From a bacterium (GTDB lineage Bacteria > Patescibacteriota > Minisyncoccia > 1-14-0-10-42-19), in NCBI GenBank assembly GCA_030690215.1, contig JAUYHD010000004.1, positions 31,090 through 95,089 of the forward strand: a stretch of 64,000 nt of DNA, given 5' to 3'. The translations under genes were made by a program, and so were the position numbers. How positions within the stretch are numbered: position 1 is the first letter of the stretch; every line of letters begins with the position of its first letter. The notes under the pieces are model-generated. The model was not told the origin of the DNA, ran no database searches, and was given only the letters and a program-made list of their open reading frames with translations. Positions 3,447 to 57,094 of the stretch are shown piece after piece.

Positions 3447-6400
3447 TTAACTTTTCGCTTTTTCTCTTTCCTCTTGAGAAAGCTGCTGGCGTTCGCGCGC
3501 AAGGCGTCGCTCTTCAATGGCTTCGGTAAGATCCACTCCCTTTAATTCAACATCAAGCGCAAGACCTTTTAATTCATTAATCAATACATGAAATGATGTC
3601 GGCAAATTCGGCGTTTTAAATTCCTCCCCGCGAACAATAGAATCGTACGCTGCCGCGCGTCCAAGCACATCATCGGATTTTATGGTGAGCATCTCCTGCA
3701 AAAGATATGCTGCTCCATATCCTTCAAGCGCCCAGACTTCCATCTCTCCAAATCGCTGGCCTCCCCCCTGGGCTTTCCCCCCGAGAGGTTGCTGTGTAAT
3801 GAGCGAATACGGTCCGATGGAACGCATATGAATCTTGTCTTCCACCATGTGAATCAATTTCATCATATAAATTTGGCCTACGGTTACAAGATGGTCAAAT
3901 TTTTCACCGGTGCGCCCATCATAGAGCTCTACTTTCCCCTCTCGCGGCAAACCGGCTTTTTCCAATTCTGATTTAATTTCTTCCACAGTTGCGCCTTGGA
4001 ACGGAGGCACAAGCGCTTGGTACCCCAGCCGTTCGGCAGCCCATCCCAAATGAGTTTCAAGGATCTGCCCGATATTCATACGGCTTACCACACCGAGAGG
4101 ATTTAAAATCATATCAACGGGAGTGCCATCCTCCAAATACGGCATATCTTCTACCGGGAGTATTTTTGAAATAACCCCTTTGTTTCCATGGCGTCCCGCA
4201 AGCTTGTCTCCTACAGAAATTTTTCTGAGTTGCGCAATTTCTATTTGAATTAATTTAATAACTCCCGTATCAAGCTTGTCTCCCCGATCGCGAGAAAACA
4301 CCTTAACGCCTACCACCCGCCCCTGCTTCCCATGCGACATGCGAAGCGAGGTGTCGCGCACATCACGCGCTTTTTCCCCAAAAATAGCCCGAAGCAATCG
4401 TTCTTCCGAAGTAAGCTCCGCTTCTCCTTTCGGAGTAATTTTCCCTACAAGAATGTCGCCCGATCGAACCTCAGCACCAATTCGCACAACGCCATCTTCA
4501 TCTAAATCTTTCAATTTATCCTCCCCGACATTCGGAATGTCATACGTCGTAACTTCCGGACCAAGCTTTGTATCGCGTACGGGGATAGAAAAATCTTCAA
4601 TATGCACCGACGTAAAAATGTCTTCGTGCATCAGCTTTTCAGAAATAACGATTGCGTCTTCGTAATTAGCGCCTCCCCATGATACAAACGCAACCTTAAT
4701 ATTTTGACCCAATGCTACCTGCCCGTCTTGTGACGAAGATACATCTGCGAGAATATCGTCCTTCTTTACTTTATCGCCGGGGCTGACAAGCGGCCGTTGA
4801 GTAATAACCGTGTATTCATTTGAACGAAGATAATTCAATAACGGATATGTCGTGTCTTTTCGCTTTTCATTGCGGATGACAATCTTTTTTGCATCGGCAA
4901 ATTTTACGGTCCCTGCCTCCTCTGCCAAAATTAACCGGCCGGAATCGCGTGCTGCTTTTTCCTCAAAACCCGTCCCAACATACGGCACCTGTGCCTTTAC
5001 GCATGGGACTGCCTGGCGTTGCATGTTCGCGCCCATCATGACACGGTTTGCGTCATCATGCTCCAAAAACGGAATAAGAGACGTTGCGATGCTGAATGCC
5101 TGAAAGGGCGCTACATCAATCAAATCAACTTCTTCCACAGAGACAACCCCCGCTTGGCCCTTGGCGCGCGCCGGGACTTTCTCTTGAAGTATTTTTCCGT
5201 TTTCATCATACGAAATGGTTGATGGAGCAATATTTTCTTCAAGTTCTTGAAAAGCGGTAAGATACGTTATTTCATCGGTAATTATGCCGTTTACAACTTT
5301 TCTGTACGGAGTTTCAAGGATGCCAAAATCATTCACGCGGGCGAAACTCGCCAAATGCAACACAAGACCAATGTTCGGACCTTCCGGTGTTTGGATGGGA
5401 CAAATCCGGCCATAATGTGAGGGGTGGGCGTCACGAACTTCAAACCCGGCGCGCTCGCGTGTTAATCCTCCTTGCCCCAATGCTGAAACGCGGCGAAGAT
5501 GTTCCAGCTCGGCCAAGATATTGTCCTGATCCATGAATTGTGAAAGCTGGTTTGTTGTAAAGAATTCTTTAAGCACTGCCATAATCGGACGGGAATTGAT
5601 AAGCTGGGCCGGCGTCATTGTATAAATATCAAGCGTACTCATGCGATCTTGTATGATGCGCTTCATCCGCGTAAATCCAACACGCAAACGCTGCTGCAGC
5701 AATTCTCCGACACCGCGGATACGGCGATTGCCCAAATGGTCAATATCATCGGGTGAGGCGTGAGGTGTATTATTAAAATCAATAATGCGGCGAATAACCT
5801 CAACAAGATCTTCCTTTCTCAAAGTGCGGCTTGCTTCTTCAATCTTATCCAGTGGAAATCCGAGCCGTTCGTTAATCTTATAGCGTCCGACAACCGAAAG
5901 GTCATATCGTTCAGGAGAAAACATACCCTCAAGAAGTTCTCGCGCGTTGTCAATGGTTGCGAATTCTCCGGGTCGGATACGTTTGTAAATTTCCACATAT
6001 GCCTCATCCACCGTTGAGGTTGGGTCCCGGTCAAGCGTTTCTTCCATAAATGACACAGAACCCTTGTCTGCCCCATGAAATGCGTCTTTAATTGATTCGT
6101 CAGTTTCAAAACCAAAAATGCGCAAAAGCGCCGATACCGGTATCTTTCGCTTACGGTCAATGCGAACGTATAATGTATTGTCTGACCCTGTTTCAATCTC
6201 AATCCATGCCCCCCGGGAAGGAATGATTTTCGCGCCGAAAAATTTCTTTCCGCGAAGCACATTTGCCGTAAAATACACGCCAAAAGAGCGCGCAATCTGA
6301 GAAACGATTACACGCTCCACCCCATTTACAATAAACGTACCGCGGGATGTCATGAGCGGTATATCAGCAAGAAAAATTTCCTGCTCCTTTGATTCTTTTG

Positions 6401-6698
6401 TTATTTTGTTTCGGAGGCGAACCTTCGCGCGTAACGATGCTTCATACGAAAGATTGTGCGCTTTCGCAAAATATTCGTCGTGTTTCGGCTCTTCATCAAT
6501 GCTGTAACCAACAAACTCAAGCTCTAAATCTTTTTCTGCGTAATCTTTAATGGGCGAAAAATCTTTAAACAAATCATGAAGCCCGCGACTAAGAAGCCAT
6601 TTAAATGAATTAAGTTGAACAGAAACAAGGTTTGGGAGGGGGGCGAGATCTGCTCGACGCTTTGAAAAATACTTTTTTGGCAGCGTGCTTTTTTTCAT
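3447..6698 (-). CDS. rpoB: DNA-directed RNA polymerase subunit beta (RpoB)
   Basis: A 1083-aa ORF with typical RpoB blocks (GRYKINERLG, NRRIRGVGELL, MQRQAVP, ANMQRQAVPCVKAQVPYVGTG). It lies immediately upstream of rpoC on the same strand. Confidence 0.97.
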   Translation of the reverse strand: MKKSTLPKKYFSKRRADLAPLPNLVSVQLNSFKWLLSRGLHDLFKDFSPIKDYAEKDLELEFVGYSIDEEPKHDEYFAKAHNLSYEASLRAKVRLRNKITKESKEQEIFLADIPLMTSRGTFIVNGVERVIVSQIARSFGVYFTANVLRGKKFFGAKIIPSRGAWIEIETGSDNTLYVRIDRKRKIPVSALLRIFGFETDESIKDAFHGADKGSVSFMEETLDRDPTSTVDEAYVEIYKRIRPGEFATIDNARELLEGMFSPERYDLSVVGRYKINERLGFPLDKIEEASRTLRKEDLVEVIRRIIDFNNTPHASPDDIDHLGNRRIRGVGELLQQRLRVGFTRMKRIIQDRMSTLDIYTMTPAQLINSRPIMAVLKEFFTTNQLSQFMDQDNILAELEHLRRVSALGQGGLTRERAGFEVRDAHPSHYGRICPIQTPEGPNIGLVLHLASFARVNDFGILETPYRKVVNGIITDEITYLTAFQELEENIAPSTISYDENGKILQEKVPARAKGQAGVVSVEEVDLIDVAPFQAFSIATSLIPFLEHDDANRVMMGANMQRQAVPCVKAQVPYVGTGFEEKAARDSGRLILAEEAGTVKFADAKKIVIRNEKRKDTTYPLLNYLRSNEYTVITQRPLVSPGDKVKKDDILADVSSSQDGQVALGQNIKVAFVSWGGANYEDAIVISEKLMHEDIFTSVHIEDFSIPVRDTKLGPEVTTYDIPNVGEDKLKDLDEDGVVRIGAEVRSGDILVGKITPKGEAELTSEERLLRAIFGEKARDVRDTSLRMSHGKQGRVVGVKVFSRDRGDKLDTGVIKLIQIEIAQLRKISVGDKLAGRHGNKGVISKILPVEDMPYLEDGTPVDMILNPLGVVSRMNIGQILETHLGWAAERLGYQALVPPFQGATVEEIKSELEKAGLPREGKVELYDGRTGEKFDHLVTVGQIYMMKLIHMVEDKIHMRSIGPYSLITQQPLGGKAQGGGQRFGEMEVWALEGYGAAYLLQEMLTIKSDDVLGRAAAYDSIVRGEEFKTPNLPTSFHVLINELKGLALDVELKGVDLTEAIEERRLARERQQLSQEEREKAKS

Positions 6699-11835: not shown

Positions 11836-12208
11836 CTGTCTCACGCATGTTTTGCTTCGTAAACCCGCTGGCCTGCGCAGAATATACGCAGAATCACGCA
11901 GACACGAAACATTCCCGCTATTACTAGCGGCATTGGACTATATCTTCATCCCACTTGTGCTGGGAGGCTAACATGTAGTCTCTACAGGGTCATAAGAAAA
12001 TATAAATGAATTTTTCTTAGACTTCCCTCGGTATTGTCCTTATGAAAGGATTTTACCGATATAAGTTAGCTTCTCGCTCAAAAATTACTCTTTGAGGCCG
12101 CCGTGATTGAGGTTGTTTCCTATCTTTATTTCATAGACGAAAAATATGTCGTTGGATTCAAACAGTCGATGAGCCAATCAGTAGTTCAAGATCGTAATGC
12201 GCGATTAG
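11836..12208 (-). mobile_element. Putative ORF-less intron in 23S between ...CTGTCTCACG and ACGGTCTGAACCCAGCTCGCG
   Basis: A 375-bp insertion splits the contiguous conserved sequence GAGACAGTTCGG.../...ACGTTCTAAACCCAGCTCGCG, which is uninterrupted in E. coli. Confidence 0.55.
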
Positions 12209-12241
12209 CGCATCAACGGTCTGAACCCAGCTCGCGTGCCA

Positions 12242-12320
<79 letters not shown>

Positions 12321-12917
12321 GCTTCGTCGATATGGACTCTTGGAAGCGACCAGCCTGTTATCCCCGGAGTAGCTTTTATCCGTTAATCTTCCGCGGCGTC
12401 TAGTGCCCACGGTCGGTTCACTATGTTCTGCTTTCGCATCTCTTTTTATACATGAAAGCATAAAAAGTTCCGAAATATTCGGAAGTTTGACATGTCCGTC
12501 TTACAGTTAAGCCAGCTTATGCCATTGCGCTATCGGCGCGATTTCCATCCGCACCTAGCTGACCTTGATAAACACCTCCGTTACTTTTTAGGAGGTAAGC
12601 GCCCCACTTAAACTGCCCACCAGATACTGTTCCCGTGCGTTTTTGCCGCAAAGGTTAGAGTCTAAAAATGAAAAGATGGGTATTTCACTGTTGGCTCCAT
12701 GCCGCCCAAGAGCAACACTTCAAAGCCTCCCCACTATGCTACGCATTACATTCTTAGAGCCAATATCAAGTTGCAGTAAAGCTTCCGGGGTCTTTTCGTC
12801 TAACTGCAGGTAACCGGCATCTTCACCGGTATTGTATTTTCACCGGGCTACTCCCCGAGACAGTCCCCCAGTCGTTACGCCTTTCGTGCACGTCGGAACT
12901 TACCCGACAAGGAAATA

Positions 12918-12953
<36 letters not shown>

Positions 12954-14299
12954 GACGAGGGCTTCGGTCGGTCAGCATCCCGCTAAAAGCGGGACACCAC
13001 CAACGTTAACCTTCTCGCATTGGTCAGGCGTCACCCTCTATACATCCTCTTACGAGTTCGCAGAGAGCTGTGTTTTTGTTAAACAGTCGCCAGGGGTACT
13101 TTCGCTGCGTCCCGCTTTCCACACGATAAAAACCGTATGGTTAACGGGAAACTCTTATTGCTAACTTACGAGTGCTTTTTTGCCGAGTTCCTTGGGGAGC
13201 ACTCACCCGTTCGCCTTAGTCTTCTCGACCTGCTCACCTGTGTCGGTTTGCGGTACGGTTTCCATATACTTAACCCTAGAAGTTTTTCTTGGAAGGCTCT
13301 TCAAAAGAATTTTCTTCCGAAACGAAAGAATTTCTGCATTGCGCGAGATTTGCCTTGCGGCCGCTTTCCGGATTTGCCGGGAAAGCATCTCTGTACAACA
13401 CAAACGCGAATCCAATAACGCGCTCTTTTTTATGTCCTCCGTCCCTCCATTGGAAATATACGGAAGTCACGGAATATTAACCGTGTGTCCATCAACTGCG
13501 CCTTTCGGCATCGCCTTAGGACCGACTCACCCTTGGCTGATCACCATTGCCAAGGAAACCTTGAGCTTTCGGCGTGCAGGGCTCTCACCTGCATTGCGGT
13601 TACTTGTGCCAACATTCTCGCTTCCCAACGCTCCACCACTTCTCACGAAGCAGCTTCACTGCATTAGGAATGTTCTCCTACCGCGTTATGCAAAAGCATA
13701 ACACCCTCACCTTCGGTACTCTGCTTGAGTCCCGATTATTTTCGGCGCAATATCTCTTGACGAGTGAGCTGTTACGCACTCTTTAAAGGATGGCTGCTTC
13801 TAAGCCAACCTCCTCGCTGTCTGAGAAATTTCACCACCTTGAAAACACTTAGCAGAGATTTAGGGACCTTAGATTGAGATCAGGGCTGTTTCCCTTTTGA
13901 CCGATGGAGCTTCGCCCCCATAGTCTAACTGCCCTTACAATACGTTCGGTATTCGGAGTTTGGTTGGAAAGCCGAGCTTTCGCCCTATGCATCCCATCCA
14001 GTAGCTCTACCCCCGAACGATAATAAAGACGCTAACCCAAAAGTTATTTCGGAGAAAACCAGCTATTCCCACGTTCGATTAGCTTTTCACTCCGACCCAC
14101 AGCTCATCCGATGACGTTGTACGATCAACCGGTTCGGACCTCCTTCCGCCTTTCGGCGAAATTCATCCTGGCCATGGGTAGCTCACGTGGCTTCGGGTCT
14201 TTTGCATGTTGCCTTTATTCTTCGCCAATTCACTCGCGTTAAAACGAGTGAATTGGAAAGAATGATGCGCGCTGTTAACACTCGGTTTCCCTTTGCCTC

Positions 14300-14860
14300 C
14301 CCCCGCTCTTTTGGCACTATTCCAGTAAACTATTTTGAATACGCTTCTTAAGATGCCCGATTACCGCTCCGTGATGTTTTAGTTTTTCTTCACGAAGCAA
14401 TGCATCTTTTTTACTAAGATACGATTCGTAATAAATAAGTTTGAATGGAGCGTAATGTTTTGTTGATCTATTTTCTCCTTGATTGTGTTCTTTCAATCTT
14501 CTCCGAAGATCATTCGTACTCCCCACATAGAAAAAATTTTTATTTTTACTTTTAAGAAAATAAACATAATACATAATCAATAATTATACCAACAAAATAA
14601 TAACGCCAAAAGAGCGGGGTTAGACGAGCAGCATGCAAAAACTCGTTGGCTCATTCTTCAATAGGCACCCGGTCACTCGTACCTCGCTCTCGCTCGGCAC
14701 TTCGTAATTTTCAATTTTTAATTTCTAATTTTTAAACATTTGAAAATTGGAACATTAAACATTGAATAAAAATTGAGAATTGAAAATTAAAAATTTTGTG
14801 CTGAACAAAAGTGAGGCACAAGCTCCCAGTCCTTGTAAGTATATGGTTTCAGGTACTATT
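14300..14860 (-). mobile_element. Intron-like insertion in the 23S 5' half carrying a GIY-YIG endonuclease gene plus an AT-rich low-complexity tail
   Basis: 23S-conserved sequence resumes on both sides (about 14290 and about 14870, CTCACGGTACTAGTTCACTATCGGTC). The insert contains the ORF 14317..14580 and 'aattgaaaatt' repeats. Confidence 0.5.
14317..14580 (-). CDS. GIY-YIG nuclease (catalytic domain only, 87 aa)
   Basis: Motifs YYVYFLKS...FYVGSTNDLRRRLKEHN, matching the GIY/YIG/Arg/Glu pattern. Confidence 0.85.
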   Translation of the reverse strand: MIMYYVYFLKSKNKNFFYVGSTNDLRRRLKEHNQGENRSTKHYAPFKLIYYESYLSKKDALLREEKLKHHGAVIGHLKKRIQNSLLE

Positions 14861-14880
14861 TCATCGCCCTCATCGGGCTG

Positions 14881-14920
<40 letters not shown>

Positions 14921-15299
14921 TTGAAGCGTATTTAGCCTTGGGAGCTAGTGCTCCCGGCTTCCCCCGAGGCATTCGTTCCTCGAGGTACTCAAGAGTACAT
15001 TCCGAGAGACAGAGATGATTTTCGTGTACGGGGCTATTACCCTCTTTGGCCCGCCTTTCCAGACGAGTTCTACTAACCAAATCTCTTCTTGTAAATCTCT
15101 CCTGAGAGTAAACTCTCAATGAATGTATCTTTCAACCCCCCTCGACTCGATGCTACGCACCTCGCTCGGGGTAAACCCATCTTTTAAAAAACGAAGATTG
15201 GGCTTGCCCTGAGTGAGATTCGCAGAATCGAATCGAAGGGTTTGGGCTCTTCCCGTTTCGCTCGCCGCTACTAAGGGAATGGACCACATCTCGCTTCGC

Positions 15300-15670
15300 T
15301 CGAGTGGAATTCCCAATTTTCAAGCACCAATTTCAAAACAAATCCCAATGACCAAAATCCAAAACAAGGGTTTTTGAAAATTGAAACATTAAAAATTGAT
15401 TGCCCGCCCAAAGGGCGAGGTCTCGCCTAAGGCGGAAAAATTAGAAATTAAAAATTGGAAATTCCGCGCCGAACAAAGTGAGAAGCAGCATTGTTTTCTT
15501 TTCCTCTAGGTACTGAGATGTTTCACTTCCCTAGGTGCGCTCCGCGCTCTGCACGGAAACCCAAATTTCCAAGCACCAACCCCCAAACAATGCAAAAATT
15601 CAAATGACCAAAACGGATTTGGAATTTGAAATTTAGAATTTGTTTGGAATTTGGATTTTGTAATTTAGGA
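15300..15670 (-). repeat. Two related AT-rich expansion inserts in the 23S 5' domain ('cc(a/c)aatttccaagcaccaa...caaatgaccaaaa' copies at about 15318 and about 15558, plus 'aattgaaa/aatttgga' low-complexity runs)
   Basis: Direct repeat and low-complexity sequence lying between conserved 23S blocks. Confidence 0.5.
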
Positions 15671-16106
15671 TTTCCGTGCAAAGCACGGTCTCCGTGGTTT
15701 ACACGGAGGGGTTTCCCCATTCGGACATCTCCGGATCAAAGGTTGCTAGTCACCTCCCCGAAGCTTATCGCAGACACGCCACGTCCTTCATCGCCACTTC
15801 AAGCCAAGGCATCCGCCATATACTCTTATTCCCGCTGAAATATACAATGATTATAAATGCTATAATCACCTGTTGTTTATATTCTATTGTAAATTTGCTC
15901 ACCTTTACTGCCGGCATCTGTTTAATAAAAAAATGATAAACAGGTGTCGGGAGTAAAAATATTGTGTACCCTCCTCCGCACTTCTCCGCTAAAGCTCCGA
16001 AGTGCTTCGGGCGGGTTATTTTTCGCAACTACGCTTCGCGTAGGCAAAAAATGAATAATCGCGCCGCAAGCAGTGCGATATCTCACGCTATGCTTGCAGC
16101 TTTGCG

Positions 16107-17988: not shown

Positions 17989-18062
17989 TGCGCGCGCCTG
18001 GACTCGAACCAGGGACCTTTGCAATGTGAATGCAACGCTCTAACCAGCTGAGCTACGCGCGC
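17989..18062 (-). tRNA. tRNA-Val (anticodon CAC)
   Basis: The reverse complement GCGCGCGTAGCTCAGCTGGTTAGAGCGTTGCATTCACATTGCAAAGGTCCCTGGTTCGAGTCCAGGCGCGCGCA folds as a cloverleaf. The anticodon loop is TTCACAT. No CCA is encoded. Confidence 0.9.
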
Positions 18063-18065
18063 CTA

Positions 18066-18692
18066 TTAGAGACCTAATTTATCGTATATTTTTTCGTGAG
18101 GATAATCAAAAATATTGCGAATGAATTTATCATACATGCCTACCCGGTATAAAAATTCTTTTGAGTTGAGTGTGGCATAGTTCAATTCCTTGCCCACCCT
18201 TGCTTCAATTGAACGCATGATACGCTCAAGTTTTGTCTTTTTTATATTGTCTCCAACAATCAATAGGTCAACGCGCGAATCACTCCCCTCTTCGGCATCA
18301 AGAAAAAATCCGGTAAGCACGACTAATTTTATATTTCCCGTGCTCCGAACCTTCCGCAATAGCTGATCGCGCGGAATGGGGGCTGCATTTAAGAGAAGAT
18401 TTTTTAAAGGACGCAAAAATGGAAATAACGGGTTTAGCTGCCATCCTTGTATCTTTTTCTTTTTCGTACGACGCCTTTTTTTTGAACGAATAACGATCTC
18501 CGACTCCCGAACGCCCTTCACGATACATCCTATTTTTTTAAGCAAATTAATCTCGTAGCGCGCCTTCTTTGCAGACACATTGCTTCGGTCTCCTATGTCA
18601 GATACATCAAACACCTTTCCGGGATTCAGCAAAAAAAGCCGCAATATTTTTACCAGCGGCTCAGACGAAAAAAGTTCTGCGAGTATATCCAT
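18066..18692 (-). CDS. Hypothetical protein with an N-terminal winged-helix-like region and a basic linker
   Basis: A 208-aa ORF. The N-terminus VKILRLFLLNPGKVFDVSDIGDRSNVSAKKARYEINLLKKIG resembles a wHTH. It sits directly downstream of rplL. Confidence 0.5.
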   Translation of the reverse strand: MDILAELFSSEPLVKILRLFLLNPGKVFDVSDIGDRSNVSAKKARYEINLLKKIGCIVKGVRESEIVIRSKKRRRTKKKKIQGWQLNPLFPFLRPLKNLLLNAAPIPRDQLLRKVRSTGNIKLVVLTGFFLDAEEGSDSRVDLLIVGDNIKKTKLERIMRSIEARVGKELNYATLNSKEFLYRVGMYDKFIRNIFDYPHEKIYDKLGL

Positions 18693-18699
18693 ACCTATT

Positions 18700-18782
18700 T
18701 AGTTAACTAGTTTGCTAGTAACTAGTCAACTAGAAAATCCCGCGACGATCGCGGGATTAAACTAGTAAACTATTTCAATTCA
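18700..18782. promoter_or_regulatory. CTAG-rich repeat cluster (5 copies of AACTAGT-like motifs) enclosing a hairpin 'atcccgcgacgatcgcgggat' (18737..18757). This hairpin is the likely rplL terminator.
   Basis: Counted directly. A mirror cluster lies at 19800..19878. Confidence 0.5.
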
Positions 18783-19180
18783 ACTTGTCCTCCTGCTGCC
18801 TCAATCTTCTTTTTGAGTTCTTCTGCTTCCGCCTTTGGCATCCCCTCCTTCAAAGGTTTGGGAGCCGCATCAACCAAATCTTTTGCTTCCTTCAAGCCGA
18901 GCCCGAGCACCTCCCGGACTACCTTAATAACCTGAATCTTCTGATCACCTCCTGATTTCAATTCAACGGTAAATGCGCTTTTTTCTTCGGCTCCTCCTGC
19001 ATCCCCTCCTGCCGCGGGAGCTGCCATCATCATACCCATAGGCATCGCCGCCGAAACGCCGAATTTATCCTCAAGCACTTTTACTAATTCCGATAAATCA
19101 AGAACGGTCATTTTTTCTATTGTCTCTACAATGTCTTTGAACTTTGCAGGAACAACAATGTCTTTTTTTTCTTCGCTCAT
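18770..19180 (-). CDS. rplL: 50S ribosomal protein L7/L12
   Basis: A 136-aa ORF with an Ala/Gly hinge and a C-terminal ...[29 protein letters not shown]...AGGQVELK. Confidence 0.95.
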
Positions 19181-19210
19181 AACTAATAACTTAATAACTA
19201 ATAACTTAAT

Positions 19211-19795
19211 TTATGTTCGACTCTTTTGCATATTTGTTAATACTCCAATAAACCCTTGCAACGGTCCATTGATAACCCGAACAAAACCTCCGAGGGGGGA
19301 TACAATACCCCCTACCACCTGCCCCAACAGTACTTCTCGCGGTGGGATGGACGCAAGCATCTTAACGGTTTCTACTCCCACATACCCCTTTTCGTATACC
19401 CCTCCGAGTATCTGCAATCCCTCGGTTTTTTTTGCGAAATCAACGAGAATTTTTACTGCCTCTACCGGCTCGCTCTCTTTTCCGCCCGAGGCGGATCCGC
19501 CTTTTGCGCCAGAGGACGCATCCGTTCCTTTGGCGGAGGCGGAAAAAAATAAAGCGACCTCCCCCTCAAAGCCGGACATTTCGCCGGAAAAGCCAAAACC
19601 ATCAAGTACGCGCTTAACCAGTCGTTTTTTTGCCACCTTAAGAGTAGCGCCCACCCCGCGAAGCTCGTTTCGAAGCGTAGACATACCCGCAACCGATACA
19701 CCGTGAAAATTTATGAACACAATCATGTCTGCCTTCTCAGACAAAGCGTGAACCTCCTTAATTATTGATTCCTTTTTTTGTTTTGTAATTGCCAT
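19211..19795 (-). CDS. rplJ: 50S ribosomal protein L10
   Basis: A 194-aa ORF immediately upstream of rplL. The N-terminus MAITKQKKESIIKEVHALSEKADMIVF is L10-like. Confidence 0.92.
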   Translation of the reverse strand: MAITKQKKESIIKEVHALSEKADMIVFINFHGVSVAGMSTLRNELRGVGATLKVAKKRLVKRVLDGFGFSGEMSGFEGEVALFFSASAKGTDASSGAKGGSASGGKESEPVEAVKILVDFAKKTEGLQILGGVYEKGYVGVETVKMLASIPPREVLLGQVVGGIVSPLGGFVRVINGPLQGFIGVLTNMQKSRT

Positions 19796-19799
19796 CTTT

Positions 19800-19878
19800 T
19801 CAGTTTTCTAGTTTCGTCCGCTCCCCGAACTTCTAGTTTTCTAGTTTCTAACTAGCAAACTAATGAACTAGGAAACTA
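19800..19878. promoter_or_regulatory. Second CTAG-rich repeat cluster (5 CTAG in about 80 bp: tctagtt x3, aactagc, aactagg) in the rplJ 5' leader
   Basis: Counted directly. Confidence 0.45.
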
Positions 19879-20154
19879 TATATTTTAACCAAATAAAAAC
19901 CGCAGCCGTAAGCCGCGGAACTCAAAACCCGCATATACACAATGCGAATCTTATGCCTTGGAGGGTCTTACAGCCCGGTTATCCAACCGGGTGCTTTCGC
20001 ATATGCCTGCCCTCTGTCTACGGCTATACAATCCAGTATAATCATCAAAGTAAACCTGTCAAGATTTATTTTTCATTCCACAAATTCTTGACAAACATAT
20101 ATCTGCATGTTAAAAGTAAATAAAATTCATCTTTAACAAAAAGGAGGCAGATAG

Positions 20155-24832: not shown

Positions 24833-25501
24833 TTATATGGCATCAAGCATTGACTGCAGAACCGCTGAAATCGTAGGGTGGTTCGTTATTGCTCCTTGCA
24901 ATAATTCACGCGCGCTTGCTTTATCTCCCAAAATATCTACATACAGCTCAACTGCCGCTGCGTAATATTGGGGATTTGTCGGCGCTTTCTCTATTGCCTT
25001 GAGTATATACTCCTCCCCTTTTTGGTTGTCGTGGAAGTGATATATATATAAATTGGAAAGATTATTGAATACACGAGCATCATCCGGCTGAATAAACGCA
25101 ACATAGCTCCAAATCTCCTCTGCTCCCTTGTAGTCTTCAATTAGTTTGCGGTACGTTCCTAGTTCCAACCAATGATCTACGAGCGCAGAATCGCTTTTTA
25201 GAGTGTCTATCAATTCCGCTATTTTTTGCTTTGCCTGCGTTGCAGATTCAGAATTCATCCCCTCGGGGATAACAACCGGCCGATCAAGATCAGGAATTGG
25301 AACCGAATCTATGCTATTTGAGACATCGGCGGGCACGACAACGGCATCTATGCCGTTGTCTTTGTTTTCGTTTTTACCATCTTCTGTAGAAGAGGGGCTG
25401 TTGGCATTGTATAGGAACATAACACCCCCAAACAGAAAAAGAACCAAAAAACCAATAATGTATATTTTGTATTTTTGCATACCCTTGTTAAAAATTTCCA
25501 A
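24833..25501 (-). CDS. Membrane-anchored TPR-repeat protein
   Basis: An N-terminal TM helix. The C-terminal half carries TPR-like repeats (…AEEIWSYVAFIQPDDARVFNNLSNLYIY…EEYILKAIEKAPTNPQYYAAAVELY…). Confidence 0.55.
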   Translation of the reverse strand: MEIFNKGMQKYKIYIIGFLVLFLFGGVMFLYNANSPSSTEDGKNENKDNGIDAVVVPADVSNSIDSVPIPDLDRPVVIPEGMNSESATQAKQKIAELIDTLKSDSALVDHWLELGTYRKLIEDYKGAEEIWSYVAFIQPDDARVFNNLSNLYIYHFHDNQKGEEYILKAIEKAPTNPQYYAAAVELYVDILGDKASARELLQGAITNHPTISAVLQSMLDAI

Positions 25502-25774
25502 TTTTAAATTTCCAATTTTTATTCAATGACATAATTCCAAAATTTTTAAATAGTGTAAGAAATTGAATCATTAAACATTGATTATTCTTCGATTTTGCTC
25601 AGAATCTTAAAATCTTGAGCTTGCCGAAAGAAAAATTCAAAATTAAGAATTAAAAATTAAACACTACTGATACTATTTCGTATTATCCCGAAATACATAA
25701 AGATTTTGCTTTTCTGCCGGAGGCAGATCTGCTCGCCTCGTTTTCGCCTTGGCGAAGCGGGCCTTCGGCATGAC

Positions 25775-26095
25775 GATGTTGCCATACGGGGCATACCCCG
25801 TTAGGCTACATCGAAAAACGTCTTCCTCGCAAAACCGCCGAATATATTTCGATGTTTACCTTTTATTGTACTTTTACTAATAATACTTTGTGTTATTCCC
25901 GTAAGACGCAAAGGTTTTGCTTTCGATGTTGCCATACGGGGCATACCCCGTTAGGCTACATCGAAAAACGTCTTCCTCGCAAAACCGCCGAATATATTTC
26001 GATGTTTACCTTTTATTGTACTTTTACTAATAATACTTTGTGTTATTCCCGTAAGACGTAAAGGTTTTGCTTTCGATGTTGCCATACGGGGCATA
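25775..26095. repeat. Tandem array: a 150-bp unit present 2.1 times (one mismatch between units). Each unit contains a family-B palindromic core.
   Basis: Unit starts are at 25775, 25925 and 26075. The repeated translation (FTFYCTFTNNTLCYSRKT x2) is visible in the ORF track. Confidence 0.85.
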
Positions 26096-34156: not shown

Positions 34157-37100
34157 TTGCGTAGTGTTCTCCGCATATTACAATCTAATTTTATCAATTA
34201 CATGCGTACTATTACTAAAAATATGAGATATGTTATGTTTTTTGCAGGTTTTATGGGAATAGCTGTGTTTTTGGCGTTTTCGCCATCAACGAGCCATGCG
34301 ATCAGCTTTCCTTCATGCTCTCTTTCCCCCCAGCAAGATAGGATTATTGTTCAGTTCAACCCTATCACAAAACTCTGGGCAAATGAGCAATACAAAATGG
34401 GGGGGCCGTTTTCGGCATCAATTCCCGCGGGAGAATACAAAATAACAGCAATGTCCTTTGACGACCACTTGGAACGGTCACATCAAAACCAGCCGAATGA
34501 GCAGTGGTTTATGATTCTTAAGAACAACAACAGCACTGTTGCTCAAACGGGTTCTACGAATGATTTGCCGGACAACGCGGATGTGCGCGTAGACGTTGTA
34601 AATATCTCACTCGTTATACCGCAATCGGTTACATCAATCATCACGTTTCATACGATGTACCCCAACAGCAATCCAAACAGTATTTACCCAATATGCGCCG
34701 CATTTGATAGGATACACCAGCCGGAACCCCCTACCGTAGATATTAAAGCAAACGGAAGTGATGGACCGATTACTATCGGATTCAACTCAAGCGCAACAGT
34801 AAGCTGGACATCGTCTAATGCATCAAGCTGTACTGCGTCAGGCGCATGGTCAGGATCAAAAAGCCTTTCAGGTTCTCAATCAACCGGAAATCTTACCGGA
34901 TCAAAAACATACACCATAACATGTACGGGATCCGACGGCAGTGACTCTGATAGCGTAACAATAAACGTACAACCACCCGCATCTCCAACAGTAGACATTA
35001 AAGCAAACGGAAGTGATGGCCCTGTAACAATCGGATTTAATTCCAGCTCAAATCTTACCTGGACCTCTTCTGACGCATCAAGCTGTACCGCGTCAGGAGC
35101 ATGGTCAGGATCAAAAAGCCTTTCAGGTTCTCAATCAACCGGAAATCTTACCGGGTCAAAAACATACGTTATAACATGTACGGGACAGGGTGGAAGCGAT
35201 TCGGATAGCGTGACGGTGACTGTGCAGTCGCAAAATCTTCCGACAGTAGACATCACCGCAACCCCATCATCAATCATACAGGGGGATACGTCATCGTTGG
35301 GATGGACATCCTCAAACGCAGATTCATGTTTCGCAACAAACGGATGGAGCGGAACAAAATCGCTTTCAGGCAATCAAGCAGTTTCGCCGCAAAACACCGC
35401 AACCTACACAATCACCTGTTCTAATGGTGCAGGCCAGGCATCAGACAGCGTAACAATTACCGTAAGCGTACCTCAATCGCTTCCGACAGTTGCTATTTCC
35501 GCAAACCCAAATCAGGTAGCGCAGGGAAACCCAAGCGTCCTTACATGGACATCTGCAAATGCAGACACATGCACCGCATCAGGTGCATCCGACTGGAATG
35601 GTTCGCGCAATATATTCGGAAATCAGGTAGTCTCTCTTTTTAATACAACAACCTACACGATTACCTGCTCCAACAGCACAGGACAAGCATCAGACAGCGT
35701 AACTGTTTCGGTCCAATCAATCACCCCCTCTGCCGACATTAAAGCGAATGGGAGCGACACATCTATCACTATTTCGCCCAACAGTTCAGCGACTATCAGC
35801 TGGACATCAAGCAATGCCGCAAGCTGTTCTATTTCACCTACCGGCTGGTTTGGGACATCGGGATCGCAATCAACGAGTAATCTCACCAACTCAATTACAT
35901 ACACAATAAATTGTAGCGGAGTGACAGGAGGCACGGCATCAGACAGTGTAACTGTGAACATCCAAGACAACCTCCCAACGGTGGATATTTCCGCGAATCC
36001 GGGATTTATAACCCAAGGAAATTCAACGGTGCTCACCTGGACTTCTTCAAACGCAGATTCATGTTTTGCAACAAACGGATGGAGCGGAACAAAATCGCTT
36101 TCCGGGAACCAATCAACATTCCTCACGCAGACAACCACATATACAATCACTTGTTACAATAACGCGGGGCAAGCAACAGACAGCGTAACTGTTTCGGTAC
36201 AAGCAATAACGCCTACGGTAGATATTACCGCCGCCCCTATAACAATAAACCGCGGCGAAAGCACTGTGCTTGTATGGAGCTCCGCAAACGCGGACTCATG
36301 TTTTGCAACAAACGGATGGAGCGGTTCTAAATCGCGCTCAGGATCAGAAGTAACGGCACCGCAATTTGATACCACATACACAGTCACCTGTGCTAAAGGA
36401 GGACAAAGCGTTTCGGATTCAGTTACGGTTTTTGTAAACGCGAACCAACCACCCATTACAGGAACATTCAATGTTGCCTGTTCCGTAAGCAGCCCGACAA
36501 TTACCCTAGGCGACAGCGTTTCTTTTGTCGCAGGGTATGCCGGAGGTGTTGCCCCCGTTACATTTCAGTGGAGCGGAGATGTCACCGGATTTACGCAAAG
36601 CCGTGTCACAAACTTTAGCACAACAGGAACAAAATTTGCGACAGTAACGGTAACCGACGCGCAGGGACGAAACAATTCCGCAAACTGTTCTGTACAGGTA
36701 GTCCCCGCGACGGTGGTAAGTGCTGCGCCTCCGCAACCTCCGACAGTTATCACAGCGACAACGAACACGCAACCGACGTCTTGTTGCTGTTGCAATGGAG
36801 TGCCAACGCAAATCCAATATGACTCAAATGGAAATCCAATTACCGTTGCGTCAGATACTCAAGACCGGTCAATGCTCGCTTCATTATTCACTACGCAAAG
36901 CGGAAATCCATCAACGCTCTTATACATGCTCTTGTTCCTATTGATTGTTCTCGCGATTATCGCCATGGTTCGCTATCTCTTCGTAGATAAGCCGGTAAGA
37001 CGGTACGAATATGGATATCGTCAAGAACAATATCCATACGAACGAAAGGGGTATGGATACCAAAACGGGAACTCCAACGGATATGCAAACGGATATGCCA

Positions 37101-39621: not shown

Positions 39622-39659
39622 AAAACATTCTAACATTCTGCAGAATGTTAGAATGTTTT
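39622..39659. promoter_or_regulatory. 38-bp perfect palindrome 'aaaacattctaacattct gc agaatgttagaatgtttt' (candidate bidirectional terminator or operator)
   Basis: Seen directly. A related split inverted repeat is at 57036..57094. Confidence 0.6.
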
Positions 39660-40474: not shown

Positions 40475-41198
40475 CGTGATGATTGGTTAATTCAAGATAT
40501 TTTTCTTCCAATGTTTTCCCGCCATCAAGAAAATCTTTCTTGTCCCCTATCGCGATTATTTTTCCTCCATGAATAATTCCGATGCGGCCGCATAATTTTT
40601 CTACCTCCTCCAAATAATGCGAGGTGAGCAAAATAGTTTTTCCGGCTTCATTTAAATCTTTTAAATACCGCCATATCTCCCGGCGGAGCTCTACATCAAC
40701 GCCCGCCGTAGGTTCATCTAAAATAAGCAATTTTGGATCATGCACCAAAGCGCGGCCCATCATAACACGGCGCTTAAGCCCGCCTGAAAGCGTTCGGAAC
40801 TGTTTTTCGGCATGTTCTTGCAATTCAAATGTATGAATGATGTGGGCGACTCTTTTTTTGCGTTCATCGGCGCGAAGCCCATAATACCCCGCCATATATT
40901 CAAAAATGTGGCGGACTTTCATAAATGGATCAACTGTGAATTCCTGCGGCGAAAGGCCTATCTGCATGCGCGCTTCCCGATACTGCGTCCGTACATCATA
41001 TCCGAATACTGAAATCTCCCCCTCTTCAAAACGCGCAATGCCCGTGACGCACTGAATGGTGGTTGTTTTGCCCGCGCCATTCGGCCCTAAAAAGCCGAAA
41101 AATTCGCCTTCTTGTATAGACAAAGAAACATCTTCCACAGCGCGAATATGCTTATAGTGTTTCTTTAAATTGCGAATACTAAGCGCGTCTTGTTTCAT
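40452..41198 (-). CDS. ABC transporter ATP-binding protein
   Basis: Walker A GPNGAGKTT, signature LSGGLKRR, Walker B LLILDEPT. Confidence 0.9.
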   Translation of the reverse strand: MKQDALSIRNLKKHYKHIRAVEDVSLSIQEGEFFGFLGPNGAGKTTTIQCVTGIARFEEGEISVFGYDVRTQYREARMQIGLSPQEFTVDPFMKVRHIFEYMAGYYGLRADERKKRVAHIIHTFELQEHAEKQFRTLSGGLKRRVMMGRALVHDPKLLILDEPTAGVDVELRREIWRYLKDLNEAGKTILLTSHYLEEVEKLCGRIGIIHGGKIIAIGDKKDFLDGGKTLEEKYLELTNHHDETPHAR

Positions 41199-41204
41199 AC
41201 CCCG

Positions 41205-41620
41205 TTAAAAATTTCCAATTTTAAATTTCAAATTTTTCCGCCAGAGGCGGATCTGCCTCAGGCAGATAATCAATGCTGTAATAAATTAATTCCTAAAAAA
41301 TAAGGTCGTTTTATTCATTAAAAAATTAAAAATTGAATAAAAATTAAAAATTAATAATTAAAAATTAAACACTACTGATACTATTTCGTATTACCCCGTA
41401 AGACGTAAAGGTTTTGCTTTTCCGCCGAAGACGGATCTGCCTCAGGCACGACTAACGGGGCATACCCCGTTAGGCACTATCGCATGGTAAGCCATGCGTT
41501 CGCCGTTTATTATTCGTATCATAGGATTCGTTTTTCATTTATATATATATGGGGTGTATACCAATGACTTACAAGAACGCATTATGCGAGAGTGCCATAC
41601 GGGGCATATCCAAATATACT
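41205..41620. repeat. Cluster of dispersed-repeat copies (two family-A hairpins 'ccgccagaggcggatctgcctcaggca', family-B 'cccgtaagacgtaaaggttttgcttt...ccatacgggg', and AT-rich 'aattaaaaatt' runs)
   Basis: The sequence is identical to segments at 6955-6998, 25560-25830 and 24078-24125. Confidence 0.7.
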
Positions 41621-57035: not shown

Positions 57036-57094
57036 AACATTCTAACATTCTACCCCTCAACTGTGTTCGGGATAAATAGAATGTTAGAATGTTG
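57036..57094. promoter_or_regulatory. Split inverted repeat: 'aacattctaacattct' - 27 bp - 'agaatgttagaatgtt'
   Basis: Same arms as the palindrome at 39622..39659. Confidence 0.55.

Follow-up and report, generated by a model that had tools for sequence, protein, structure and literature searches.

The 64,000-nt stretch analyzed here (contig JAUYHD010000004.1; referred to as the window, with positions counted from its first letter) carries the genes for ribosomal proteins L10 (rplJ) and L7/L12 (rplL), followed by a gene that we designate X and by tRNA-Val, all on the minus strand (Table 1). L10 homologues group the organism with Candidatus Niyogibacteria, a Parcubacteria lineage of the Candidate Phyla Radiation. 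An earlier note on this DNA had drawn attention to two clusters of CTAG tetranucleotides bracketing rplJ-rplL. The arrangement is better described as three start codons, each of them preceded on its 5′ side by a short-period repeat array and none of them by a Shine-Dalgarno (SD) sequence; no GGAG-type motif was found before the AUG of rplJ, rplL, or X. The arrays end 6 nt, 0 nt, and ∼10 nt from the AUG of rplJ, rplL, and X, respectively.

Table 1. Features of the rplJ-rplL-X region in the order of transcription (array sequences in mRNA sense)
Feature	Position	Strand	Basis
Sigma-70-like promoter of the rplJ operon (TTGACA, 16-nt spacer, TATACT)	20035..20062	minus	score 11/12
L10-leader-like RNA (GCCGUAGACAG ... 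CCAAGG motif, attenuator terminator at the end)	19885..20041	minus	RF00557
Leader terminator (hairpin CCGCGGCUUACGGCUGCGG, then U-tract)	19891..19918 (hairpin 19918-19900)	minus	8 pairs, 6 G-C; tail TTTTTATTT; predicted fold
rplJ 5′-UTR (untranslated region) array, distal arm (AUAGUUUC CUAGUUCA UUAGUUUG CUAGUUAG)	19850..19878	minus	Tandem Repeats Finder (TRF), period 8, 3.6 copies
rplJ 5′-UTR array, proximal arm (AAACUAGA AAACUAGA AG, nested hairpin GUUCGGGGAGCGGAC, GAAACUAGAAAACU)	19803..19849	minus	TRF; predicted fold
rplJ (L10), with lineage-specific 21-aa Gly/Ser/Ala insertion	19211..19795	minus	
rplJ-rplL spacer, repeat throughout (AUUAAGUUAUUAGUU twice)	19181..19210	minus	TRF
rplL (L7/L12)	18770..19180	minus	
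rplL intrinsic terminator (hairpin 18736-18758; before it, UAGUUUACUAGUUU with CTAG 18762)	18736..18769	minus	10 pairs, 6 G-C
Array before the X AUG (CUAGUUGA CUAGUUA CUAGCAAA CUAGUUAA CUAAAUAGGU)	18693..18735	minus	TRF, period 8, 4.4 copies
Gene X (208 aa, conserved Parcubacteria protein; winged-helix N-terminus, basic wing tip)	18066..18692	minus	
tRNA-Val	17989-18062	minus	

CTAG clusters and repeat arrays of the rplJ-rplL-X operon

CTAG is depleted within the window, as the earlier note had stated for bacteria in general: 52 sites are present, against 237 expected from base composition and 66 from a second-order Markov model. Ten of the 52 fall within two stretches of ∼60 bp on either side of rplJ-rplL, with the flanks originally listed (TCTAGTT three times, AACTAGC, AACTAGG, AACTAGT, GCTAGT, and AACTAGA). 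In plus-strand numbering, the downstream cluster comprises four sites in the array before the X AUG (18730, 18722, 18715, and 18707) and one at 18762, whereas the upstream cluster (span 19808-19871) has two in the distal arm of the rplJ array (19852 and 19868) and three in the proximal arm (19841, 19833, and 19808). The clustering is non-random, since random placement of 52 sites in 64 kb reached such density (at least five sites in 65 bp) with a P of ∼2e-5 in 200,000 simulations; a pair of such stretches 1.1 kb apart is far less likely still. The density of the extended motif AACTA/TAGTT reaches 7 per 100 bp at the two clusters alone (18674-18773 and 19779-19878) and does not exceed 2 elsewhere in the window. 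No AACTAG/CTAGTT cluster was found in the 64 kb outside the rplJ-rplL-X operon, and the lack of further copies there ruled out a miniature inverted-repeat transposable element (MITE) or other interspersed repeat family as the nature of the CTAG arrays.

Both clusters are tandem or inverted arrays of the 8-nt unit AACTAGNN, with palindromic cores (AACTAGTT) that abut every 7 to 8 bp; CTAG sites are spaced by 8, 7, and 8 bp across 18707-18730 and by 8 bp from 19833 to 19841. TRF reported period 8 at 18700-18733, 19831-19847, and 19850-19878, and period 7/15 at 19179-19210. The CTAG arrays of the window thus have an 8-nt rather than a 7-nt unit, and only the rplJ-rplL spacer shows a 7/15-nt period. 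The upstream cluster occupies the ∼95 nt from the leader terminator to the rplJ AUG; its first four units share one orientation, and the units after them are reverse-complemented. Self-complementarity of the core allows the arrays to form imperfect hairpins. The distal arm pairs with the proximal arm in the predicted fold of the rplJ 5′-UTR, a Y-shaped hairpin of −22.6 kcal/mol (z = −2.5), and the array's own upstream arm out-pairs 30 of 32 mismatched controls. The proximal arm reads GAAACUAGAAAACUGAAAAG-AUG after the small hairpin, GAAAAG being the last stretch before the start codon. The 30-nt spacer between rplJ and rplL is filled by a related array of 7/8-nt period: it consists of a perfect 15-mer repeated twice (2.1 copies at 100% by TRF), which can also be read as a 7-mer repeated 3.9 times, has the related core TAGTT/AAGTT (UAGUU/AAGUU in the mRNA) and no CTAG, and is predicted to be unstructured (−4.1 kcal/mol).

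Interleaving of the downstream sites with the rplL terminator, also claimed in the earlier note, was borne out. A G+C-rich hairpin with a U-tract (tail TTCTAGTT, with TT before it) lies 3′ of the rplL stop codon, between CTAG 18730 and CTAG 18762. In its predicted fold (z = −5.9), ACUAG and CUAGU lengthen the stem.

Two peculiarities of rplJ itself deserve mention. A 24-nt tandem duplication (TRF; 19477-19524) coincides with the 21-aa Gly/Ser/Ala-rich insertion in L10 (SASAKGTDASSGAKGGSASGG), which is absent in the 8 closest homologues; the insertion is therefore a further slippage product at the locus. In addition, a perfect AAGGAGG occurs 7 nt 5′ of an in-frame TTG at codon 18 (19742-19765), where the public gene call on a same-strain contig (P0001, 177 aa) begins. 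Conservation of the N-terminus MAITKQKK nonetheless identifies the ATG at 19795 as the true start.

The operon is preceded by an RNA resembling the L10 leader, which in Bacillus subtilis is a transcription attenuator responding to L10(L12)4. The match to RF00557 (19885-20041, minus strand) covers the full model length with 40.2 bits (E = 1.2e-4) but misses the gathering score of 44, and a scan of the window at Rfam gathering thresholds retrieved no L10 leader. We therefore consider this RNA leader-like rather than a member of the curated family; it shares with the Rfam L10 leader the conserved motif and a terminator at its end, on the same strand and 5′ of rplJ. Among related loci, an L10 leader was found at the gathering threshold in 1 of 20 (locus L160 reaches the gathering score), and three further loci (L138, L102, and L090) gave RF00557 matches by E-value search below that threshold. 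The alternative raised in the earlier note, that the CTAG motifs are RNA elements of the L10 leader, thus holds in so far as a leader-like RNA is present, but the upstream cluster itself (19808-19871) lies 3′ of the leader terminator, outside the model, which ends at 19885. A 24-nt stretch of the leader terminator region (19904-19927) is 79% complementary to 18811-18834 near the rplL 3′ end, which may be due to chance.

Gene X was put forward in the earlier note as a winged-helix-like protein that could bind CTAG half-site arrays in DNA. The structural part of this proposal stood: in an AlphaFold2 model (pLDDT 77), the N-terminus forms a winged helix whose wing is long and basic, Foldseek matched the model weakly (E ∼4e-3) to MarR, ScoC, and TFE folds, and a profile search gave weak matches to TFE and ArsR-type chains. 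No significant match was found in Pfam or NCBIfam, and the C-terminal domain has no family assignment. Over 330 homologues of X, uniform in length and ∼50% identical, occur across Parcubacteria. In 67 of 118 loci (57%), X is the gene directly after rplL in the same orientation, often with a gap of <40 nt, which suggests that rplJ-rplL-X is a conserved operon.

The binding part was not supported. The CTAG sites could be double-stranded operator half-sites for a dimeric regulator, either X or a TrpR-like protein, that represses or bounds rplJL. The E. coli trp operator, which binds TrpR in tandem, has CTAG sites 8 bp apart, and the window resembles it in its palindromic cores at 7 to 8 bp and in the string ACTAGTTAACTA 5′ of X, which matches the trp operator core; the winged-helix fold and basic wing of X fit the same idea. 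Unlike the trp operator, however, the window sites lie off the promoter and are not conserved in relatives. No promoter-like site was predicted inside either cluster, the rplJ promoter lies ∼170 nt upstream of the upstream cluster, and both clusters fall within transcribed spacers. The motif occurs nowhere else in the 64 kb, the arrays of other lineages (see below) are strand-specific and non-palindromic, and a search limited to the neighbor X found no TrpR-like gene. As for X, it is widespread and conserved across Parcubacteria, whereas the CTAG arrays vary and are confined to a narrow subclade, which makes it a poor candidate for a sequence-specific binder. Its position beside rplL was not correlated with the presence of arrays (12/66 versus 11/51; p = 0.65), and X was discarded as the array partner. 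Altogether, we regard DNA operators as a very unlikely explanation of the clusters.

Arrays at rplJ and rplL in other Parcubacteria

Locus L001, from what is in effect the same strain, has all three spacers identical to those of the window. Slightly more distant relatives are L002 to L004 and L005, with L10 proteins 85 to 86% identical over aligned positions (76% by BLASTP, with the insertion counted), and L172, with 80% (72% by BLASTP). These loci keep the promoter hexamers (TTGACA/TATACT precede rplJ both in L002 and in L005, a separate relative), the GCCGUAGACAG...CCAAGG leader motif, the leader terminator, and, wherever the contig reaches, the gene order through X. The upstream CTAG cluster was found in none of them; unrelated sequence occupies its position, and in L172 this place is taken by GTTTTAC (GUUUUAC) heptads. 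With the window and the same-strain L001 as its sole occurrences, the upstream cluster offers too narrow a base for judging its conservation. The downstream array is kept in L167/L168 and L169, whose X proteins are 82 to 83% identical to that of the window: sequence changes have spared the four CTAG cores just before the X ATG but not the stretches in between, and in L169 the fifth core, 5′ of the rplL terminator, survives too. It is absent in L170 (X 83% identical). The rplJ-rplL spacer array is kept in L172 and has a recognizable form in L006. The arrays thus change quickly between relatives, and those with CTAG are limited to a narrow subclade. The earlier note had named absence of the clusters from orthologous loci as evidence against its proposal; such absence was found for the upstream cluster and, in part, for the downstream one.

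To look beyond these relatives, genome contigs were scanned for L10. The L10 protein of the window had no exact match among existing records. A single-protein query found no relatives; an alignment-based query, used afterwards, delivered 160 further Parcubacteria rplJ loci. Together with the loci retrieved before, and with the window's own strain excluded, these made up a survey set of 151 non-redundant loci. CTAG clusters precede rplJ in some distant lineages (L109, with 6 sites; L159, with 5; L016, L079, and L080), and L070 has one between rplJ and rplL. CTAG is over-dispersed in the rplJ UTRs of other lineages, with 7 loci having at least 3 sites against 1.5 expected. The most over-dispersed 4-mers in the 150 nt before rplJ were AGCT, CTAC, CTAG, and GCTA, with TTTT also high. 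CTAG itself is therefore not special, as AGCT and CTAC are over-dispersed equally or more. These 4-mers reflect sense-strand arrays of period 7, such as CUACUGA in five copies, CUACAAC in four, or AGCUAAC-AGCUAUA-AGCUACA; further units in other lineages are CUAAAAG, AAAUUNN, and GUUUUAC.

Period and location of the arrays are both strongly biased. The best repeat lag was 7 in 19 of the 20 most periodic loci, and a uniform scan detected 37 arrays of period 7, 3 of period 8, 1 of period 9, and none longer. Of the period-7 arrays, 16 are located in 37 kb of intergenic sequence 5′ of rplJ and at least 10 in the rplJ-rplL spacer (10.5 kb), compared with 2 in the other non-coding DNA of these loci (48 kb), i.e., an enrichment of at least 10-fold before rplJ and rplL. 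Arrays within 50 nt of the start codon occur in 20/151 loci at rplJ, 15/147 at rplL, and 3/69 at X, so that ∼10 to 13% of Parcubacteria have one at rplJ or rplL. They are poor in G (11%) and polar with respect to the sense strand (CTA 74 versus TAG 18; TAC 34 versus GTA 6), with CUA as the most frequent trinucleotide after AAA. Like rplJ of the window, rplJ genes across the survey lack SD sequences almost without exception (4-mer match, 3%; 5-mer match, 0%; n = 150). More generally, the 30 nt before the start codon in ∼150 Parcubacteria contain 14% G at rplJ and 7% at rplL, compared with 23% at other open reading frames (ORFs), and many non-repeat rplJ and rplL leaders are C/A-rich (e.g., ACAACCAAACACCACACU).

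Two simple functional models were discarded. Across the survey, arrays before rplJ pair with their own upstream arm better than with mismatched controls (Wilcoxon p = 0.002), but only about half of the rplJ arrays form the 3′ arm of a hairpin opposite a complementary array, and the rplL arrays mostly do not; a general hairpin model therefore fails for rplL. Provision of stop codons in all three frames was rejected because several arrays are stop-free (CUACAAC, CUACUCC, and CAAAUUC).

Pairing between the two flanks of the operon fared no better. In the window, 18700-18719 is 90% complementary to 19851-19870 (18 Watson-Crick pairs plus one G-U of 20 in mRNA sense), and the duplex energy of its flanks is the strongest among 122 loci, equaled by 0.3% of mismatched pairs. 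In transcripts reading through the rplL terminator, the clusters could thus pair into a long processing stalk around rplJ-rplL, to be cut by RNase III. Over the 122 loci, however, real flanks are no more complementary than mismatched ones (mean, −32.4 versus −32.2 kcal/mol; p = 0.51), so conserved flank pairing was rejected. The distal arm of such a stalk would lie past a strong terminator, and if L005 and L167, which come from the same sample, belong to one genome, the downstream array exists there without the upstream one. As both flanks of the window are built from one palindromic unit, their complementarity is automatic, and we find the stalk highly improbable.

Other repeats and neighboring genes in the window

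Arrays similar to those of the operon, made of units other than AACTAG/CTAGTT, are found elsewhere in the window ahead of genes for a subtilase, an ABC ATPase, and a hypothetical protein, and they also form expansion segments of 23S rRNA and two terminator-like hairpins. The 23S rRNA gene (12128-15839, minus strand) is ∼790 nt longer than the model, with insertions of 126, 206, and 86 nt and a further large one near model position 583; A/U-rich 7-nt repeats lie at 14705-14795, 15374-15463, and 15617-15673. A group I intron match (11914-12119) adjoins its 3′ end. The 64-kb window contains no 16S rRNA gene. The arms of hairpins 39624-39657 and 57036-57093 are tandem copies of one octamer (AACATTCT twice and AGAATGTT twice); one of these hairpins is terminator-like and follows an ABC-2 permease gene, and the other lies downstream of tRNA-Asn. 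A 255-nt tandem repeat (34736-35211; 1.9 copies, 84% identical) sits inside a 1020-aa ORF with no Pfam match.

A MITE-like family with inverted ends CCCCGTTTGGCAACATCGAAA / TTTTCGATGTAGCCTAACGGGG is present at 25490-26095 and 41205-41470 of the window, with a 150-nt unit in 2.1 copies at 25774-26095, and at positions 907-1056 of L169, where the insertion point of the copy coincides exactly with the ATG of X. The element terminates in ...TAACGGGGT-ATG. The gene at 41198 has this same leader end, and that at 25480 has a nearly identical one (...TAACAAGGGT-ATG).

Unlike in most bacteria, rpoB (3447-6698) is not the next gene after rplL. It lies ∼12 kb further on the minus strand, past X, tRNA-Val, other genes, and the 23S-5S rRNA genes.

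Origin and possible role of the arrays

The reading that we favor, with a probability of about one half on the strength of these sequence comparisons, is that the CTAG clusters are fast-evolving, lineage-specific arrays of the unit AACTAGNN that originated by slippage and putatively act in RNA. Replication slippage would generate such arrays, as it does other simple-sequence repeats of the heptanucleotide class, and they would be retained for an action in mRNA rather than in DNA. They may supply a G-poor leader for the translation of genes devoid of SD sequences, and where they take the form of hairpins, they could determine how stable the mRNA is, how it is processed, or how accessible its start codon is. 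The CTAG excess is, in this view, a by-product, because one unit with a palindromic core has multiplied in both orientations.

Several observations weigh against this interpretation. The predicted fold of the rplJ UTR is only moderately better than that of shuffled sequence, and a hairpin ending 5 to 15 nt 5′ of the AUG is ill-suited to an unstructured initiation region. The window arrays have period 8 instead of 7 and are U-rich or A-rich instead of C/A-rich, and the upstream cluster is restricted to what is effectively one strain. About 85% of the Parcubacteria rplJ loci have no array, which is thus dispensable. Shared ancestry among the survey loci means that the counts are higher than the true number of independent events. 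Finally, neutral slippage would give equally rapid turnover.

That last point leads to the possibility that the arrays are functionless by-products of slippage in tolerant spacers, with CTAG enriched through the chance identity of the unit. Close relatives carry unrelated sequence at the same places, arrays exist in the minority of loci noted above, and similar ones are found elsewhere in the window, ahead of unrelated genes and within expansion segments of 23S rRNA; the 24-nt duplication behind the L10 insertion is another slippage product at the same locus, and heptanucleotide repeats are the commonest class of long simple-sequence repeats in prokaryotes, ascribed to slippage (Mrazek 2007, as cited in PMC4679880). 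Neutrality sits less easily with the at least 10-fold enrichment before rplJ and rplL over other non-coding DNA, the strong sense-strand polarity, and the depletion of G. It also leaves aside several instances of conservation: L035 and L076 share ∼100% identity over ∼50 nt of the array before rplL while their rplJ DNA is 76% identical, the rplJ-rplL spacer array is kept in the window, L172, and L006, and CTAG cores persist across the window, L167, and L169 despite changes in the intervening sequence. We therefore hold a purely neutral origin to be somewhat unlikely. The heptanucleotide class as cited there resembles the Parcubacteria arrays in being short-period, tandem, mostly of 7 nt, non-coding, and ascribed to slippage. 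Start-codon enrichment, strand polarity, and local conservation set the Parcubacteria arrays apart, since a purely mutational class does not predict them.

More specific roles in RNA can be conceived. HutP and TRAP bind triplet-repeat RNA sites, and HutP reads UAG-N4 repeats. By analogy, the arrays might be RNA sites for an oligomeric protein, with one UAG/CUA core per subunit, that governs whether transcripts extend past the rplL terminator or how rplJ, rplL, and X are translated. UAG occurs in mRNA sense 8 times in the 98-nt rplJ UTR, mostly 7 to 8 nt apart, and another 7 copies surround the rplL terminator, some on either side of its hairpin, so that regularly and closely spaced triplets flank a terminator as in HutP/TRAP sites. 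The sharp preference for a 7-nt period across lineages suggests a molecular ruler, and CUA is the leading trinucleotide after AAA in the start-codon arrays. Against this, the spacing in the window is 7 to 8 nt with irregular gaps, the units are diverse (CUACUGA, AGCUAAC, AAAUUNN, and GUUUUAC), many of them in other lineages lack UAG, and the 7-nt preference also has a proposed mutational explanation. X is not associated with the arrays, no candidate protein was identified, and we know of no HutP/TRAP-type protein in this organism, all of which renders such a binder distinctly doubtful. In a broader version, the 7- to 8-nt arrays would be a dedicated but lineage-variable cis-element that replaces the SD sequence and sets rplJ/rplL output in Parcubacteria, with one CUA/UAG core per repeat read by a ruler-like RNA-binding factor or by the ribosome itself; the CTAG clusters would then be one fast-evolving version. 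We consider this doubtful as well, though a little less so.

The favored reading, slippage arrays putatively acting in mRNA, has counterparts elsewhere. Direct repeats of the heptamer TAACTGA are found in marine Beggiatoaceae and in some Cyanobacteria and Bacteroidetes. In Beggiatoaceae they lie just 5′ of start codons without SD sequences, including those of ribosomal protein genes, and S1, Csp, and CsrA have been proposed as their readers in translational control (MacGregor 2015, PMC4679880). In Nostoc, TTTTGAA heptamers near start codons may have regulatory effects (bioRxiv 10.1101/2022.06.06.494920). Common to these systems and to the Parcubacteria loci are tandem arrays of 2 to 6 copies of a short unit that end a few nucleotides before the start codon, the usual absence of an SD sequence, and the presence of ribosomal protein genes among the targets. 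The window differs in its 8-nt unit (AACTAGNN), used in both orientations, and the Parcubacteria in general in that the unit is not shared genome-wide, each lineage having its own. Whereas the TAACTGA arrays are spread over ∼170 unrelated genes, those of Parcubacteria concentrate on rplJ and rplL. In the literature library searched, no paper linked such arrays to Patescibacteria or to rplJ. What is new is their concentration on these two genes across the phylum, their lineage-specific units, and their occurrence in both single-stranded and hairpin forms.

If the arrays are neutral, they counsel caution, in that an excess of a rare palindromic tetranucleotide can stem from slippage of a unit and not from a protein-binding site. 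If they have a function, they would reveal how translation of highly expressed genes that lack SD sequences is initiated in bacteria of the Candidate Phyla Radiation. They would also provide a second, phylogenetically independent test case for the heptamer repeats of Beggiatoaceae and Cyanobacteria, one tied to rplJ and rplL, two genes with products required at a fixed ratio.

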